A stretch of DNA of 64,000 nt from Enterobacteria phage GEC-3S. The position numbers and the translations under genes are program-made. The notes under the pieces were generated by a model, which worked only from the letters and a program-made list of their open reading frames with translations, had not been told where the DNA came from and searched no databases. This document shows, in pieces, positions 18,620 to 24,257 of the stretch; positions within the stretch are counted from its first letter, which is position 1; every line of letters begins with the position of its first letter. The stretch lies in the sequence record HE978309; one strand, 5' to 3'.

Positions 18620-18656
18620 TGTTTGATTCTCCTAAGTGGTATCTCGTCTTGATGGT

Positions 18657-18698
18657 TGTATTGTAGGGGAGTTATCCTCCCCTGTCAACACTTTTTAT
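18657..18698 (-). promoter_or_regulatory. early promoter cassette (PeSL-like)
   Basis: TTGACA, spacer GGGGAGGATAACTCCCC palindrome, TACAAT. Confidence 0.55.
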
Positions 18699-18702
18699 AA
18701 AA

Positions 18703-18870
18703 TTATTTGTTAATTTCTGGTGCGTTGCTAGGATAGTAACCTTCTTTAACTCCGAGGTATTTCGCAACCATCCCTACAATCTTCTGTGCTACTACAATGT
18801 CAAATTTCAGATAATCTTCGCCGTAGGTTTCAATGATATATGCTTCACATGCTGCTTTAGTCTCGAACAT
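18703..18870 (-). CDS. small protein, copy A of a duplicated gene (55 aa)
   Basis: MFETKAACEAYIIETYGEDYLKFDIVVAQKIVGMVAKYLGVKEGYYPSNAPEINK; about 85% nt identity to 21979..22146. Confidence 0.5.
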   Translation of the reverse strand: MFETKAACEAYIIETYGEDYLKFDIVVAQKIVGMVAKYLGVKEGYYPSNAPEINK

Positions 18871-18902
18871 TTTGATTCTCCTATATTTCGTTTCGGTATG
18901 GG

Positions 18903-18944
18903 TGTATTATAGGGGATCTCCCGATCCCCGTCAACAACTTTTTT
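18903..18944 (-). promoter_or_regulatory. early promoter cassette (PeSL-like)
   Basis: TTGACG, spacer GGGATCGGGAGATCCCC, TATAAT, conserved leader. Confidence 0.6.
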
Positions 18945-18948
18945 AAAA

Positions 18949-19230
18949 TTATTCGTGATTAGTTTCGATGTTGTGCATTTTGCACCAGTTCAGCCAATCG
19001 ACCAGGTCTTGATAGTTGATGCTTTTATCTGCTGCCATCGTTTTTGTCTTGATACCCATATGTGCGTTATGAGTAAGCATTTTTACAGTGAACTCAATTT
19101 TATCGCCTTTAGCTTTAACATCAACCAGTTTGGTCCACTGGCTACCAGCGCCGCGAATGTTCATGCCAACGATGTTTCCGATGTATGCTTCTTTGTTTTT
19201 CAGGATTTCGGTTGCTTTGATGAATTTCAT
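18949..19230 (-). CDS. hypothetical early protein (93 aa)
   Basis: ORF track; GGAGAATCAAA RBS. Confidence 0.5.
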   Translation of the reverse strand: MKFIKATEILKNKEAYIGNIVGMNIRGAGSQWTKLVDVKAKGDKIEFTVKMLTHNAHMGIKTKTMAADKSINYQDLVDWLNWCKMHNIETNHE

Positions 19231-19261
19231 TTTTGATTCTCCAGTTCGTTTCGGTATGGGT

Positions 19262-19303
19262 GTATTATGCTATGTTCTTACTTTGGTGTCAACAACTTTT
19301 TTA
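19262..19303 (-). promoter_or_regulatory. early promoter cassette (PeSL-like)
   Basis: TTGACA, 17-18 nt, CATAAT, conserved leader ACACCCATACCGAAACGAAC. Confidence 0.55.
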
Positions 19304-19570
19304 GATATTTTCAGAAATAAATTTTAAAACTTGACGTAAATGTTTCTCATCTTTGATAGTCGCCGGAAGTTCTTCTTTTACTTCCTGTGCAAGATAGATA
19401 TTTCCGTTCCAAGTGAAAGATCCGTCTTCGTTTACGCGATAGCTGAACATCCACTCGCAATCATTTTCGATTTCATATACACATAGAAGAGTATAATCTT
19501 CAAAGCTATTGATTTCAAGGTCGAAGCCGTGACGTTTTGCAAAGTTGGTAGTGGTTTTAGTCAGTGCCAT
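19301..19570 (-). CDS. hypothetical early protein (89 aa)
   Basis: ORF track; GGAGAATCAAAC RBS. Confidence 0.5.
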   Translation of the reverse strand: MALTKTTTNFAKRHGFDLEINSFEDYTLLCVYEIENDCEWMFSYRVNEDGSFTWNGNIYLAQEVKEELPATIKDEKHLRQVLKFISENI

Positions 19571-19606
19571 TGTTTGATTCTCCTAAGTGGTATCTCGTTT
19601 CGATGG

Positions 19607-19648
19607 GTGTATTATGCTATAGGCGTGATCTGGTGTCAATTCTTTTTT
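19607..19648 (-). promoter_or_regulatory. early promoter cassette (PeSL-like)
   Basis: TTGACA then CATAAT-like -10, conserved leader variant. Confidence 0.5.
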
Positions 19649-19659
19649 TAAATTTTATG

Positions 19660-19695: not shown

Positions 19696-20004
19696 TCATT
19701 TAGACAAATAATCATTCAGTGCAATCCGGTCGGCGTATGCTGGTGTTACGTCAATCGCAATCACTTTAACGCGTGCTTTCTTGCGACCTGGGTTTTCACG
19801 TAACCAGTGCTCATGACCGTGAACATTTTTATACTGCGATGCTTCTTCGAAGGTACGGATCGGACCTGGGTAATCAGCGTAAAGGATCTCTAGATCTTCG
19901 GTGATGTAAAAATATACATCGTAATTGCTGTTCTCTAGCTTAAGCAGAGACTTTCGGAACATTGGGAGATTTTCGCGGGTAAATTCAAAGATATTATCTT
20001 TCAT
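19696..20004 (-). CDS. HxHW-family small protein, paralog 1
   Basis: 102 aa; YDVYFYITEDLEILY...HGHEHW...VIAIDV. Confidence 0.55.
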   Translation of the reverse strand: MKDNIFEFTRENLPMFRKSLLKLENSNYDVYFYITEDLEILYADYPGPIRTFEEASQYKNVHGHEHWLRENPGRKKARVKVIAIDVTPAYADRIALNDYLSK

Positions 20005-20026
20005 AGTATTATCCTCAATAGTTGGA

Positions 20027-20049
20027 TGAAAAGGGGCGTTAACGCCCCC
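20027..20049 (-). terminator. hairpin, weak terminator
   Basis: GGGGCG-TTAA-CGCCCC with a short U-run; near-copy of the 16005 hairpin. Confidence 0.3.
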
Positions 20050-20054
20050 ATATA

Positions 20055-20342
20055 TTAAAACAGTCCTTCCTGTACACCGTAGTAGAGTTCGTCGCTGATA
20101 ATTTCATTAATGCGACGGTGTGCATATTCCTGATTTGCGAAGTTGTCAGCAAGTTCTATTTTAGTTTCGCCGTCATGAGTCCATTTAGTGATAACTTTAC
20201 CATCTGCAAATTTGAAGTTGAACTCTTTAGCTACTGCATCGCGTACCAGACGTGCAAACTTATTGTTGCGGATTGCATTGTCGGTTTCGTGTGCAGCGTG
20301 AGCAAATTTGTTAACTTTCAGAGTGATAGTGATGTATGCCAT
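20055..20342 (-). CDS. hypothetical early protein (95 aa), related to 23382..23693
   Basis: ORF track; shared segment ...RNNKFARLVRDAVAKEFNFKF vs ...LIREVRKALAKEFNTKI. Confidence 0.5.
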   Translation of the reverse strand: MAYITITLKVNKFAHAAHETDNAIRNNKFARLVRDAVAKEFNFKFADGKVITKWTHDGETKIELADNFANQEYAHRRINEIISDELYYGVQEGLF

Positions 20343-20385
20343 AATTTGATTCTCCTAGTTAGAAAGTGTATCTCGTTTCGATGGG

Positions 20386-20427
20386 GATATTATGCTATAT
20401 CCCCGATCCGGTGTCAACACTTTTTAT
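20386..20427 (-). promoter_or_regulatory. early promoter cassette (PeSL-like)
   Basis: TTGACA; -10 CATAAT lies inside hairpin GGGGATAT...ATATCCCC. Confidence 0.5.
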
Positions 20428-20702
20428 AAAATAATTTTTTGATATTTTTCTATGATGTTCGTGTAAGTCACATCAACCGCTAGCACTGTTGCTTCGAATC
20501 CACCGTTTAGCCAATGGCTATGATCATGGTCGTGAAAGAAACCTAGACCAGTACGAAGACCTTCTTTATATTCTGCGCGTACATTCAGTTTGTCGTCGAT
20601 AAACAGATAAAACCATGAATTTTTACTAGGATTGATGATACAACCTTTCAGATTAGGGAGAATATCACGACTAAGAATAAACTTATCACCTACTTTGAAC
20701 AT
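20424..20702 (-). CDS. HxHW-family small protein, paralog 2
   Basis: ORF track 20424..20717; start ATG with GAGGA RBS; WFYLFIDDKLNV...HDHDHSHW...VLAVDV. Confidence 0.55.
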   Translation of the reverse strand: MFKVGDKFILSRDILPNLKGCIINPSKNSWFYLFIDDKLNVRAEYKEGLRTGLGFFHDHDHSHWLNGGFEATVLAVDVTYTNIIEKYQKIIL

Positions 20703-20706
20703 AATA

Positions 20707-21027
20707 TTAGTCCTCACTTATAAGGTCAAACCAATTGTTTTTCGCATAATGCTTAATGCGTGCTTGATCTGCTTCCGCTGGTGATAGATTCCATGCAACC
20801 ACTACAACTTCTGACGCATCGTCATCAGTTTCCGATACCCAATGATTGTGATTCATACAGTTATTTGCTATCGAGTGAGCAAATGATTTCATCACTGGAG
20901 ACGTATAATCATAGTAACGGATTTTCAGATTTTCATCAACATACAAATAGATCGTATAAGGTTTATATTCAGTAACAAGTAACAGACAGTTACGCAATTC
21001 TGGGAAAATCTTTTTAGTTAATTTCAT
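20707..21027 (-). CDS. HxHW-family small protein, paralog 3
   Basis: 106 aa; YTIYLYVDENLKIRY...NHNHW...VVVAWNL. Confidence 0.55.
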   Translation of the reverse strand: MKLTKKIFPELRNCLLLVTEYKPYTIYLYVDENLKIRYYDYTSPVMKSFAHSIANNCMNHNHWVSETDDDASEVVVVAWNLSPAEADQARIKHYAKNNWFDLISED

Positions 21028-21229
21028 ATTCTAGTTCTCCGTAATACACGGTAATCCATTTTTCTTCATATTTTGTATCTTTCCAGCACACAATACCGTT
21101 TACTGTGCAATCTTTGGAATTGACGAATGATTCATATTGTTCCGCATCTTCCATCATTTCATGAGCGGTCTTTTCATCGAATATATCGCAGATCGCTTTA
21201 TATGCTCGATAATCTTTAAATTTGCTCAT
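21014..21229 (-). CDS. small protein, tandem duplicate (copy 1)
   Basis: MSKFKDYRAYKAICDIFDEKTAHEMMEDAEQYESF..., paralog of the adjacent upstream gene. Confidence 0.5.
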   Translation of the reverse strand: MSKFKDYRAYKAICDIFDEKTAHEMMEDAEQYESFVNSKDCTVNGIVCWKDTKYEEKWITVYYGELEYEIN

Positions 21230-21231
21230 AA

Positions 21232-21441
21232 TTAACACCACTCAAGAGTTTTTGAAAACACATCTATCCATTGTTGAGTATATGCGGTTTCTTTCCATGA
21301 TACAATACCAGTCGAATAATGGTTTTTGTTTCCAGAAAAGGACGGGCATTTTGATGCATCTTCCATCATCTTTTCGGCGAACTCTGGTTCGTATACTCGC
21401 AAGATCTGTTGATATGCTTTATAATCTTTAAACTTACTCAT
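21232..21441 (-). CDS. small protein, tandem duplicate (copy 2)
   Basis: MSKFKDYKAYQQILRVYEPEFAEKMMEDASKCPSF... Confidence 0.5.
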   Translation of the reverse strand: MSKFKDYKAYQQILRVYEPEFAEKMMEDASKCPSFSGNKNHYSTGIVSWKETAYTQQWIDVFSKTLEWC

Positions 21442-21722
21442 AACAACACCACCGATACATCGTAATCATTCGCGACCTTATCGGCTTCTTCAACCGACAT
21501 AATACCTTCTGCGACAATTGGCATAGGGTGATCGTGATTCCACCAATGGTCATGTATATCAATTTCAGTTTTGCCGGAAAATGAATCATGTTTGACGTTT
21601 TTCACTTTATACCCGATGTGACCGTCGTGGTCAATAAAGATATAGTTTCCGAAAATCGGTGTCTGTAAAATCATACCGAAAAATTTTTCTTTGTTGTTCG
21701 GGTCGAGTGTAATCATTTTCAT
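21438..21722 (-). CDS. HxHW-family small protein, paralog 4
   Basis: 94 aa; NYIFIDHDGHIGY...HDHWWNHDH. Confidence 0.5.
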   Translation of the reverse strand: MKMITLDPNNKEKFFGMILQTPIFGNYIFIDHDGHIGYKVKNVKHDSFSGKTEIDIHDHWWNHDHPMPIVAEGIMSVEEADKVANDYDVSVVLL

Positions 21723-21734
21723 AATATATTCCTC

Positions 21735-21914
21735 TTAGAAAGGGATGGTCATTTCTTGAGCTTGTACATTCTCGTTAGGATTAAACTTCATCCAACCGAT
21801 ATTGTCTACCAGCATATGCACATTTTTATCATATCCTACGTGAGTAGTCAACACTAAATGTGCTTTACATTCAACGATGATTTCCATGTACTTCTGAACT
21901 TCGATAGCTTTCAT
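21735..21914 (-). CDS. hypothetical small protein (59 aa)
   Basis: sub-60-aa ORF MKAIEVQKYMEIIVECKAHL...; GGAGAATCAAA RBS; promoter cassette upstream. Confidence 0.4.
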   Translation of the reverse strand: MKAIEVQKYMEIIVECKAHLVLTTHVGYDKNVHMLVDNIGWMKFNPNENVQAQEMTIPF

Positions 21915-21943
21915 TTTGATTCTCCGTTTGTTGTCTTGATGGG

Positions 21944-21985
21944 AGTATCTTACTACTCCCTTTAATCATTGTCAACGATTATTTG
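21944..21985 (-). promoter_or_regulatory. early promoter cassette (PeSL-like)
   Basis: TTGACA, spacer containing GGGAGTAGTAAGATACTCCC hairpin, weak -10. Confidence 0.45.
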
Positions 21986-22146
21986 TTAATTTCTGGTGCG
22001 TTGCTCGGATAGTAACCTTCTTTAACACCCAGATATTTTGCAACCATTCCGGTGATCTTCTGTGCTACTACGATATCGAATTTCAGGTAGTCTTCACCGT
22101 GGTTTGCTACAATGTATGCTTCGCATTCTGCTTTAGTCTGGAACAT
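21979..22146 (-). CDS. small protein, copy B of a duplicated gene (55 aa)
   Basis: ORF track 21979..22212; start at MFQTKAECEAY... with GGAGAATCAAAA RBS; duplicate of 18703..18870. Confidence 0.5.
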   Translation of the reverse strand: MFQTKAECEAYIVANHGEDYLKFDIVVAQKITGMVAKYLGVKEGYYPSNAPEINK

Positions 22147-22177
22147 TTTTGATTCTCCTATATCTCGTTGGTATGTG

Positions 22178-22219
22178 TGTAGTATAGGGGATCGGTGATC
22201 CCCTGTCAACAACTTTTTT
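22178..22219 (-). promoter_or_regulatory. early promoter cassette (PeSL-like)
   Basis: TTGACA, spacer GGGGATCACCGATCCCC, TATACT. Confidence 0.55.
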
Positions 22220-22526
22220 ATTCTTCATCTTCATTTTTATCTTTATATGCGTACTTCATAAATTTGTCTGCTACTTTGTCCGCGTTTTCAGGTTCTACGT
22301 CTGACGCTAGGACAACAGCTAGTTCGGTTTTGTCGTTTCCGTCATACCAATGATTATGAGTGTCGTTTTCTTCGATATAAAACGAATCATTTGGAGTTGT
22401 TCGACAATATACGTCTAAATTCCCATCGATATAAAAGATCCAATCCGAATACAAAATGATTGCTTTAGCCAGATTTTTATTGTCTCTTACAAAAGGTTCC
22501 GCGACAAATAGCTTAGTTTGTTCCAT
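22218..22526 (-). CDS. HxHW-family small protein, paralog 5
   Basis: ORF track 22218..22583; start at MEQTKLF... with GAGGAAAA RBS; WIFYIDGNLDVY...HNHW...AVVLASDV. Confidence 0.55.
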   Translation of the reverse strand: MEQTKLFVAEPFVRDNKNLAKAIILYSDWIFYIDGNLDVYCRTTPNDSFYIEENDTHNHWYDGNDKTELAVVLASDVEPENADKVADKFMKYAYKDKNEDEE

Positions 22527-22542
22527 AATATTTTCCTCAAAA

Positions 22543-22734
22543 TTATACAGCTTCGTAAACTTCCCAATGTTCAGCGCCAACACGCTTAACGAAAAGGTTT
22601 TCTTTGATGTTATTCATAAACGTCTGGATAGATTTAATGCGGTTGGAAGGTTTCCAGTCTTCGTTGGCATTGCGGCGATACATAATAACATTACCAGTTC
22701 GCTTATATTCAGCAACCATTTTAAGATCACACAT
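22543..22734 (-). CDS. hypothetical early protein (63 aa)
   Basis: ORF track; GAGGATAAT RBS. Confidence 0.45.
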   Translation of the reverse strand: MCDLKMVAEYKRTGNVIMYRRNANEDWKPSNRIKSIQTFMNNIKENLFVKRVGAEHWEVYEAV

Positions 22735-22779
22735 AATATTATCCTCAATTTGTGGGAGAGTATTACCCCTCCCAATGAT

Positions 22780-22821
22780 TGTTATGTTATATCACACAAA
22801 ATGGCGTGTCAATGCTTCTTT
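22780..22821 (-). promoter_or_regulatory. early promoter (sigma70-like)
   Basis: TTGACA, 17 nt, TAACAT; overlaps the 3' end of the upstream ORF. Confidence 0.4.
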
Positions 22822-23112
22822 TGCGGTTCCGCTAAGACTTTCGATCTCGCCTGGCATAACATCAACCGCCAGAACTTCGACAACATCCTCGGACCCTAAC
22901 CAGTGAGTATGGCCTTTGTAGAACTTGATAACCAGACTACCTTCCTCATCCCATTTAACGCTATCGCTAGCCCACCACACATCACCGTCGATAAAGTTGA
23001 TGTAAAGCACACTACGCCACATTGAATTAATTACTTTCAATACTGCGCCTTTCATCTCTTCCACGGTATGGTCTTCCATTTTGAAGACCTCACCTACCTG
23101 AACTTTTGCCAT
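22792..23112 (-). CDS. HxHW-family small protein, paralog 6
   Basis: 106 aa; VLYINFIDGDVWW...HTHW...VLAVDV. Confidence 0.55.
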   Translation of the reverse strand: MAKVQVGEVFKMEDHTVEEMKGAVLKVINSMWRSVLYINFIDGDVWWASDSVKWDEEGSLVIKFYKGHTHWLGSEDVVEVLAVDVMPGEIESLSGTAKEALTRHFV

Positions 23113-23309: not shown

Positions 23310-23341
23310 GATTGATTCTCCTAGTTCGTTTCGGTATGTGT

Positions 23342-23383
23342 GTATTATAGGGGATCTCCCGATCCCCTGTCAACAACTTTTTT
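23342..23383 (-). promoter_or_regulatory. early promoter cassette (PeSL-like)
   Basis: TTGACA, spacer GGGGATCGGGAGATCCCC, TATAAT, conserved leader. Confidence 0.6.
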
Positions 23384-23693
23384 AAAGTTTTTCCATGATA
23401 ACGGTCATAATTACATCTTCTGCGCGAGCGGTCAGATTATCAGCGTCAGCATGTGGGCGGTTGGTTGTTACAGAGATAGCACCGTTGCGCACTGGTTTGA
23501 TATTGATATCAAGATGATCCGCGAAACGTTCGCCAGTTACAGAATGAATTTTGGTGTTAAATTCTTTTGCCAGTGCCTTGCGAACTTCACGAATCAGGGT
23601 AGCGTTTTTCAGTTGGTTCTCCGCGCTCATGGTCTTCTGGGTGTTCATGGTTCCGTCGAAGTCAATCATTGGCAGCGTTACGATGTATTTCAT
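23382..23693 (-). CDS. hypothetical early protein (103 aa), related to 20055..20342
   Basis: ORF track; GGAGAATCAAAA RBS. Confidence 0.5.
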   Translation of the reverse strand: MKYIVTLPMIDFDGTMNTQKTMSAENQLKNATLIREVRKALAKEFNTKIHSVTGERFADHLDINIKPVRNGAISVTTNRPHADADNLTARAEDVIMTVIMEKL

Positions 23694-23736
23694 TTTTGAT
23701 TCTCCGTTTAAGAAAGTGTGTTTCGTTTTGATGTGT

Positions 23737-23778
23737 GTATTATAAGGGGATCACCGATCCCCTGTCAACAACTTTTTG
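23737..23778 (-). promoter_or_regulatory. early promoter cassette (PeSL-like)
   Basis: TTGACA, spacer GGGGATCGGTGATCCCC, TATAAT. Confidence 0.6.
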
Positions 23779-23780
23779 AA

Positions 23781-24257
23781 TTATTTTTCTTGATGCTCGC
23801 GCTCGTACTTTTCGAAATAAAATTCTACTGGCTGATCGTGGATTGAAAGCAAGCCAAAGCGTTTAGCCGCTCGCAATCCCATATTGCGCTGAATGTACTT
23901 CTGGAAGTTCTCGCGTATACACTTACGCCAGTATTCTAAGCCCATACAGCTTTTATAAAGATTGCATTGCACACACGCCGGATTCATGTTATCAAGTATA
24001 TCATGTTCCGGTTTATGCATTCCTACAACCTTATACTTCCACGATCCATCATCATTACGGGCAATTCGTCCATTTTCATCATAGACTACCTTTGAGCGTC
24101 GCAATACTGGTTTGATATGGTCTGCGTGCCAGCGATCCCCTAGTTCCTCGCCACAATAGGCACAACGCCCACCGTATTTCATTTTCAGGATCTGGCGTTG
24201 CTCTTTCTTTGACAATTTTTTAGGTTTAGGGGCTTTCGCCCCTTCATTATCACACAT
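23781..24257 (-). CDS. HNH endonuclease (free-standing, homing-endonuclease-like)
   Basis: 158 aa; CAYCG...HADHIKP...N...ACVQCN HNH motif; start overlaps ligase stop. Confidence 0.65.
   Translation of the reverse strand: MCDNEGAKAPKPKKLSKKEQRQILKMKYGGRCAYCGEELGDRWHADHIKPVLRRSKVVYDENGRIARNDDGSWKYKVVGMHKPEHDILDNMNPACVQCNLYKSCMGLEYWRKCIRENFQKYIQRNMGLRAAKRFGLLSIHDQPVEFYFEKYEREHQEK

Follow-up and report, generated by a model that had tools for sequence, protein, structure and literature searches.

Here we describe two adjacent small genes in a 64,000-nt stretch of DNA (the window) from Enterobacteria phage GEC-3S (sequence record HE978309). The original prediction, made from the sequence alone, had reported tandem duplicated open reading frames (ORFs) at 21014..21229 and 21232..21441 with coupled stop-start spacing. 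Comparison with the ORF list and reading of the sequence showed that these coordinates were exact and that the ORFs lie head to tail with a gap of 2 nt. The order had been given without a strand. The adjacency held, and on the minus strand, which both genes occupy, 21232..21441 is the upstream copy. We refer to this gene as B and to the downstream gene as A. The minus-strand junction between them reads TGG TGT TAA TT ATG AGC, and a Shine-Dalgarno (SD)-like sequence of the GGTG type, GAGTGGTG, is present within the 3' end of B ahead of the A start. The start of B itself overlaps the stop of the preceding gene, ORF203 in the numbering of Escherichia phage Phi1, in an ATGA arrangement that is a predicted translational coupling.

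Positions 20000-23000 of the window were 97.9% identical to Phi1 and showed 88-98% identity to 57 records, all of them Krischvirus (the RB49/Phi1/JSE group of T4-like coliphages). The B and A proteins were 100% identical to Phi1 ORF202 (YP_001469547) and ORF201 (YP_001469546), respectively, both annotated as 'hypothetical protein'. Both also matched phrog_8471, a phage-specific family of small proteins of unknown function, B over its full length (E 6.4e-37) and A with residues 1-69 on profile positions 3-71 of 71 (E 3.5e-36). The sequences, and implicitly the relatedness of A and B, are already known from public resources. Neither the sequences nor the peptide motifs of the two proteins were found in the literature, including the supplements of the accessory-gene screen of Silas et al. 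The observation is correct, and it is an ordinary one, as small paralogous ORFans are common in variable regions of T4-like phages.

Pairwise alignment of A and B by BLASTP revealed 31 identities over 68 positions (46%) and 68% positives without gaps (E 2e-21). The Smith-Waterman score was 165 compared to 26.4 +/- 5.2 (maximum 53) for 2000 shuffles, corresponding to z = 27. With the identical first 10 residues removed, the score was 114 and the shuffle maximum 49. The similarity is thus significant and the two proteins are true homologs, as had been claimed. No third copy was detected in the window using tblastn or the family hidden Markov model (HMM).

The overall nucleotide identity of the two genes was 57%, and their 5' ends form a direct repeat of 88 nt (Table 1). 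In the window, the first 39 nt of A and B were 82% identical compared to 50% for nt 91-204; across genomes, the corresponding values were 79-90% in every one and ~50%. The third codon positions agreed in 21 of 30 cases in the 5' tract versus 15 of 38 elsewhere. This suggests that the 5' similarity reflects either gene conversion or a common constraint on the 5' end.

We compared 13 Krischvirus loci (the window, Phi1, JSE, KMB43, RB49, GoldenSnicker, ELT3, SSG23, G37-3, JEP8, Brandy and two IMG/VR contigs). Full-length B and A-family ORFs were found in all loci examined where the gene was present. The ratio of nonsynonymous to synonymous divergence (dN/dS), calculated by the Nei-Gojobori method, had a median of 0.07 for B (12 distinct alleles, dS up to 0.89) and also of 0.07 for Phi1-type A. 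With a ratio this low for each of them, A and B are real genes under strong purifying selection. Between A and B, dN was 0.49 and dS was ~1.9. Because dS is saturated, the A/B split is ancient and does not represent a recent dosage amplification.

Copy number and recombination in Krischvirus

A tblastn search detected the family in 55 phage records, all Krischvirus, and IMG/VR added only two further Krischvirus loci. B was present in all 55 records. Both copies were present in 52, and A was missing from the remaining 3, namely JSE (two records) and vB-Eco-KMB43. The copy number across the records was one or two and never higher. Outside Krischvirus, no tandem pair was found in the phages sampled, where all remote homologs were single copy.

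In JSE and KMB43, B is intact and the segment corresponding to window positions 21222-20460 (A, ORF200 and ORF199) is swapped for two other genes of the 'H-x-H-W' family described below. The left breakpoint of this swap is located exactly at the conserved TAATTATG junction. The junction TGGTGTTAATTATG was kept at all Krischvirus loci examined, and this holds also for JSE and KMB43, in which another gene lies downstream. The identity of B was at least 90% throughout Krischvirus. Alleles of A fall into at least two classes. The Phi1 and RB49 types are 62% identical, and the RB49 type starts with M(G/S)IQSQFKDY; metagenomes add intermediate A alleles and an A1/A2 chimera (P0018). In phage G37-3, a Phi1-type B end is joined with an RB49-type A, indicating that B and A are exchanged independently. 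RB49-type phages carry an indel ahead of the junction that deletes the B stop, and the resulting 85-aa ORF overlaps the first 13 codons of A in another frame. This stop-less form of B is common: the sequence cluster that shows it (P0004) comprises 97 sequences.

On two metagenome contigs from different samples (L025 and L026), a single gene occupies the B position, with B-like codons 1-13 and an A-like remainder. BLAST aligned the hybrid contig to the B 5' end as well as to the A 5' end of relatives that have two copies. The hybrid gene is the probable footprint of an unequal crossover in the shared 5' ends that would have removed one 212-nt repeat unit. It also has a 1-nt deletion in an A-run near its 3' end. 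The deletion changes the final 9 residues and shortens the C-terminal helix, and it is either a sign of a decaying gene or a homopolymer error. The single-copy states of JSE, KMB43, L025 and L026 are secondary losses and not ancestral. Collectively, the locus turns over via three recombination routes, namely A allele replacement, swap of a whole module and collapse of the pair to a hybrid. It offers a clean small example of the upkeep and remodelling of a tandem pair in a phage accessory region, visible in natural isolates.

Transcription unit and neighbouring genes

The pair lies in one of the hyperplastic regions known from Phi1 and RB49, where ORFans abound together with PeSL cassettes, elements made up of a sigma-70 consensus promoter and a stem-loop (PMC2839356). 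In experiments on Phi1 and RB49, PeSLs proved to be strong early promoters and terminators and to mediate modular shuffling (PMC2839356). Eight PeSL copies lie within 18.6-23.8 kb of the window, in a region that borders on the gene 30 ligase and on an HNH endonuclease gene. A promoter scan located minus-strand consensus promoters at 22209-22181, 21975-21947 and 20417-20389. A stem-loop, GGGAGTA...TACTCCC, lies in and overlaps the spacer of the second of these, which is the nearest upstream of the B/A unit. No terminator-like site was found between 21947 and 20436, and the promoter-like matches there were weak (9/12, minus strand, at 21851-21822, 21752-21723 and 20936-20908). The junctions of the six genes ORF204-ORF203-B-A-ORF200-ORF199 are a 12-nt gap, the ATGA overlap, the 2-nt gap, a 14-nt overlap and a 4-nt gap, in this order. 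Based on the promoter and repeat scans, the gene spacing and the published PeSL activity, the simplest reading is that these genes form one early polycistronic unit whose members would be translationally coupled. Neither A nor B has a PeSL of its own, as none lies between or adjoins them; the nearest are two genes upstream of B and two genes downstream of A.

Table 1. Coordinates of the A/B pair, its transcriptional surroundings and related loci (window positions unless a contig or locus is named; ORF numbers are those of Phi1)
Feature	Position	Strand	Details
Copy B (upstream paralog)	21441->21232	minus	ATG...TAA, 69 aa; Phi1 ORF202; starts MSKFKDYKAYQQ
Copy A (downstream paralog)	21229->21014	minus	ATG...TAA, 71 aa; Phi1 ORF201; starts MSKFKDYRAYKA
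B-stop/A-start junction	21227..21234	minus	TAA-TT-ATG, 2-nt spacer; read from sequence
ORF203 stop/B start	21438..21441	minus	ATGA overlap; read from sequence
A 3' end/ORF200 start	21014..21027	minus	14-nt overlap; ORF coordinates, Phi1 annotation
5' 88 nt of B	21356..21443		direct repeat of 21144..21231; repeat family D6, 72% identity, 212-nt spacing
5' 88 nt of A	21144..21231		direct repeat of 21356..21443; putative unequal-crossover substrate in L025/L026
ORF204	21735..21914	minus	59 aa, first gene of six-gene unit; ORF list, Phi1 annotation
ORF203	21438..21722	minus	94 aa, 'H-x-H-W' family, coupled to B (predicted); ORF list, Phi1 annotation, family HMM
ORF200	20707..21027	minus	106 aa, 'H-x-H-W' family, overlaps A 3' end; ORF list, Phi1 annotation
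ORF199	20424..20702	minus	92 aa, 'H-x-H-W' family, final gene of unit; ORF list, Phi1 annotation
Nearest promoter upstream of B/A unit	21947..21975	minus	weaker PeSL-type sigma-70 early promoter, TTGACA-17-TAAGAT, 10/12 matches
PeSL closing the unit and opening the next	20367..20436	minus	repeat families D1 and D2; promoter TTGACA-17-CATAAT, 11/12, at 20417-20389
PeSL cassettes	18638-18707, 18884-18953, 19242-19311, 19590-19652, 20367-20436, 22159-22228, 23322-23391, 23731-23794		intergenic, ~70 nt; TTGACA, G/C-rich spacer hairpin, TATAAT
'H-x-H-W' family genes	19696-20004, 20424-20702, 20707-21027, 21438-21722, 22218-22526, 22792-23112	minus	six paralogs
ORF191	18703-18870	minus	55 aa, duplicated small gene
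ORF205	21979-22146	minus	55 aa, duplicated small gene
ORF212	23781-24257	minus	free-standing HNH endonuclease gene
Stop-less B form, RB49	L004 2001-2258		85 aa
Stop-less B form, GoldenSnicker	L007 1501-1758		85 aa
Hybrid B/A gene	L025 524-721		B position
Hybrid B/A gene	L026 478-675		B position

The 6-kb stretch around the pair holds other sets of paralogs. A family of six proteins of 92-106 aa, named 'H-x-H-W' here, flanks A and B and is predicted to be coupled to them. Its members share the motif Y-x-[YF]-[IV]-D...H-x-H-W...V-[VL]-A-x-D-V-x-P-x-E-A-D. BLASTP detected only one pair among them (E 3e-13), and all six matched the family HMM. An AlphaFold2 model of ORF200 showed four strands and a C-terminal helix, with a predicted local distance difference test (pLDDT) score of 79.8, and the family had no match in PDB, Pfam or NCBIfam. 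Members also adjoin an A/B homolog (P0008) in contig L013, and two are present in L014. We considered a functional link between this family and A/B and set it aside. The family is abundant in the region, so its adjacency to the pair in the window, JSE and L013 may be due to chance, and it is absent from the podovirus loci.

A second duplicated small gene is represented by ORF191 and ORF205, each located just downstream of a PeSL. These two copies lie 3.3 kb apart, with identities of 87% at the protein level and 85% at the DNA level, and their duplication is much younger than that of A/B. At the edge of the hyperplastic region, the HNH endonuclease gene ORF212 lies directly downstream of the gene 30 DNA ligase and overlaps its end.

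Predicted fold and wider family

The AlphaFold2 model of B had a pLDDT of 94.3 and a predicted template modelling score of 0.82, although only 7 aligned sequences were used, and four of the five models scored above 91. Helices were predicted at residues 8-14, 19-30, 43-46 and 55-68, with a long loop at residues 31-42. B is confidently predicted to be a compact four-helix domain. A Foldseek search of BFVD returned only uncharacterised phage proteins, including the Krischvirus ortholog and proteins of Aeromonas phage phiAS7 (H6UK22) and Yersinia phage fHe-Yen3-01 (A0A1L7DQE0), both with a template modelling (TM) score of 0.78. In the sequence searches of Pfam, NCBIfam and PDB, weak matches to HNF_C, HslJ, an RxLR effector and the AfAlkA TBP-like domain were far below the cut-offs and were rejected.

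An exhaustive HMM search of 1.84 billion representatives yielded 10 matches, all short and unannotated except P0010. This protein (1862 aa, nine matched stretches, E 4e-9) was rejected as spurious because it consists of perfect ~190-aa repeats of a low-complexity, K/E-rich coiled coil. It shows that the short, charged profile of this family can attract coiled-coil repeats. Two further profile iterations expanded the family to ~35 sequence clusters, all of 61-96 aa and unannotated. A third iteration, for which the profile comprised 23 sequences, yielded neither more distant members nor larger multidomain proteins. The conserved positions are [FW]4, [YW]7, [YF]10, A22, M25, M26, (E)D28, A29, S34-F35, I46-V47, W49, T52, Y54 and W58.

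The genomic context of several homologs was examined. P0009, from another T4-like phage (L014), lies between the DNA ligase (gene 30) and the alt ADP-ribosyltransferase, matching the region of the window. P0028, from Enterobacter phage SDFMU_Pec (Autographiviridae, Koutsourovirus), is encoded at L020 3760-3960, 3.76 kb from the left end and upstream of the primase/helicase. P0013 and P0029 come from T7-like contigs of ~42 kb, where they are among the first genes next to the genome end and an S-AdoMet lyase follows a few genes downstream; in one such contig the distance is three genes. P0012 has a pentapeptide-repeat protein and an S-AdoMet lyase as neighbours. Across three lineages of virulent phages, the family is thus found consistently as an accessory gene of the early region, and the tandem pair is specific to Krischvirus.

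Within the podovirus subfamily, the mean column entropy was 0.28 for residues 1-31, which are nearly invariant, compared to 1.78 for the loop at 31-45. Positions 48, 50, 51, 53, 55 and 56 were also highly variable, and F35, I46, V47, W49, Y54 and W58 were fixed. The A and B alleles of Krischvirus showed the same trend of a conserved scaffold and a variable loop. The Koutsourovirus-type homologs P0020-P0030 have an invariant N-terminal half (MRNKWKDWVAFQELE.QYGTFTAIAMMEDA) and a hypervariable middle. The podovirus subfamily also has a conserved C-terminal tail, [RKH]KCSG, that is lacking in the Krischvirus proteins.

Origin and possible role of the pair

The term 'tandem duplicated' in the original prediction stands insofar as A and B are adjacent head-to-tail homologs with an old split; that they arose by duplication in place is plausible. 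In a neighbour-joining tree of 61 columns, the monophyly of A and B had a bootstrap value of 11%, and the B-A1 distance (0.89) was on par with the distances of B and A1 to P0008, the homolog from another T4-like contig (0.94 each). These values would fit a second copy that arrived from another phage by modular shuffling and landed beside its homolog, as would the location in a documented recombination hot-spot with module swaps (PMC2839356; the JSE swap) and the very different alleles accepted by the A slot. However, a tree of 61 columns cannot decide the matter, and several features argue against acquisition. The N-terminus MSKFKDY is common to A and B and absent from all homologs outside the genus, the SD-like GTGGTGTT is located upstream of both starts, and an exact head-to-tail placement at a gene junction is what tandem duplication predicts. 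The shared 5' tract, however, may result from later conversion. Taken together, duplication in place is the probable origin, and acquisition from another phage is a distinctly weaker candidate.

We are highly confident of the evolutionary and structural description of the pair. For its role, we propose that each protein is a compact four-helix domain that would be made immediately after infection and would bind a host or host-defence protein. The helical scaffold (A-x-x-M-M-E-D-A, S-F, I-V-x-W, T-x-Y-x-x-x-W) would present the hypervariable loop at ~31-45 and positions 48-56, and these would set the target specificity. Both copies would be kept because their divergence lets them recognise different targets or variants of a target. 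A conserved scaffold with a hypervariable surface is expected of a protein that binds a rapidly changing partner, and a binding role is consistent with B being fixed and conserved and A being exchangeable and, in some phages, dispensable. As a whole, an old, selected pair with an early binding role is the best explanation, and we lean towards it by a little. Binding via the variable loop with differing specificities of A and B is a more tentative suggestion.

Several observations weigh against this explanation, in addition to the plausible but undemonstrated duplication in place. No usable match emerged from searches of Pfam, NCBIfam and PDB, whether with single sequences or a profile (best PDB profile match E 0.04), and Foldseek comparison of the B model with PDB found no relative (best E 6.9). 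We infer early expression of A and B from the promoter consensus and the PeSL literature. The loop at 31-45 could be merely unconstrained. The net charge varies from approximately -7 for A and 0 for B to +3 for the podovirus homologs, which does not point to a single simple mode of action; DNA mimicry was dropped as a candidate because the charge is not conserved across the family.

The evidence also bears on other explanations of the pair. A and B could be subunits of an obligate heterodimer, in which the 2-nt coupling ensures equal amounts and neither subunit works alone. Their shared fold, adjacent coupled translation and joint retention in 52 of 55 Krischvirus records would agree with this. 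However, B occurs without A in JSE and KMB43, every sampled homolog beyond the genus is single copy, and free swapping of A among alleles that are 62% identical, while B remains at least 90% identical, is hard to fit to a co-evolving interface. An obligate heterodimer is therefore improbable, and A and B may form homodimers or optional heterodimers. Amplification for dosage, a 'genomic accordion', has been documented in T4, where the small counter-defence gene tifA was amplified in tandem under toxIN selection (Srikant, Guegler and Laub 2022), and A and B do recombine with each other, as seen in L025 and L026. A recent event of this kind is refuted for A/B by the low identity of the copies (46% for protein, 57% for DNA) and their saturated dS, by a copy number that does not exceed two and by the conservation of both copies as orthologs across the genus, and we give it almost no weight. 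Least probable of all is that one or both ORFs are chance frames or decaying pseudogenes. The ORFs are very short and without a known domain, the B stop is lost in RB49-type phages, giving the 85-aa product, and the L025 hybrid has a frameshift. For the copies in the window, this is refuted by the dN/dS of 0.07 for both and by full-length ORFs at all loci examined, and the confident fold prediction and the remote homologs with the same conserved residues in unrelated phages also speak against it.

Beyond the pair itself, A and B may represent a new four-helix fold that acts as an immediate-early inhibitor of a host defence or host factor in T4-like myoviruses and T7-like podoviruses. Its loop would be shaped by an arms race, and the Krischvirus pair would be a set with two specificities that is reshuffled by allele exchange, gene conversion and collapse. 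We regard this wider proposal as rather doubtful. With a fold not found in PDB, an early position and a hypervariable loop, the family of ~35 clusters is a reasonable, unproven candidate for host-takeover or counter-defence screens.

Among known loci, Phi1 ORF202/ORF201 is the same locus as the pair in the window, without any difference, and its public records give neither a function nor a remark on paralogy. RB49 ORF202/ORF201 differs at the junction, since B runs to 85 aa without its stop and A starts with MGIQSQFKDY. The PeSL-flanked ORFan cassettes described by Arbiol et al. 2010 (PMC2839356) come from the same genomes and the same region and, like the locus in the window, consist of a PeSL-bounded unit with recombining gene content. 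Unlike in those cassettes, A and B are internal genes of a six-gene unit, and the breakpoints are located at the gene junction TAATTATG and inside the 5' ends of the paralogs, not in the PeSLs. The small takeover and anti-defence proteins of T7- and T4-like phages, such as T7 gp2, gp0.4 and the neighbours of T3 SAMase, resemble A and B in their size of 60-90 aa, in their position among the earliest expressed genes and in their sporadic spread across unrelated virulent phages; a further likeness is the S-AdoMet lyase gene next to the podovirus homologs. This resemblance is by context only, with no match in sequence or structure. A link to TifA or the T4 anti-toxin-antitoxin island was rejected because no T4 family member appeared in any search and the family sits in a different region, from gene 30 to alt; nor did A and B show any sequence relationship to tifA. 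As a system, tifA in T4 is alike in being a small early accessory gene in tandem, whose copies are made and removed by homologous recombination. In contrast, tifA amplicons are of recent origin, consist of many identical copies and exert their effect through dosage, whereas A and B, an ancient pair with 46% identity, are fixed at two copies and each conserved separately.

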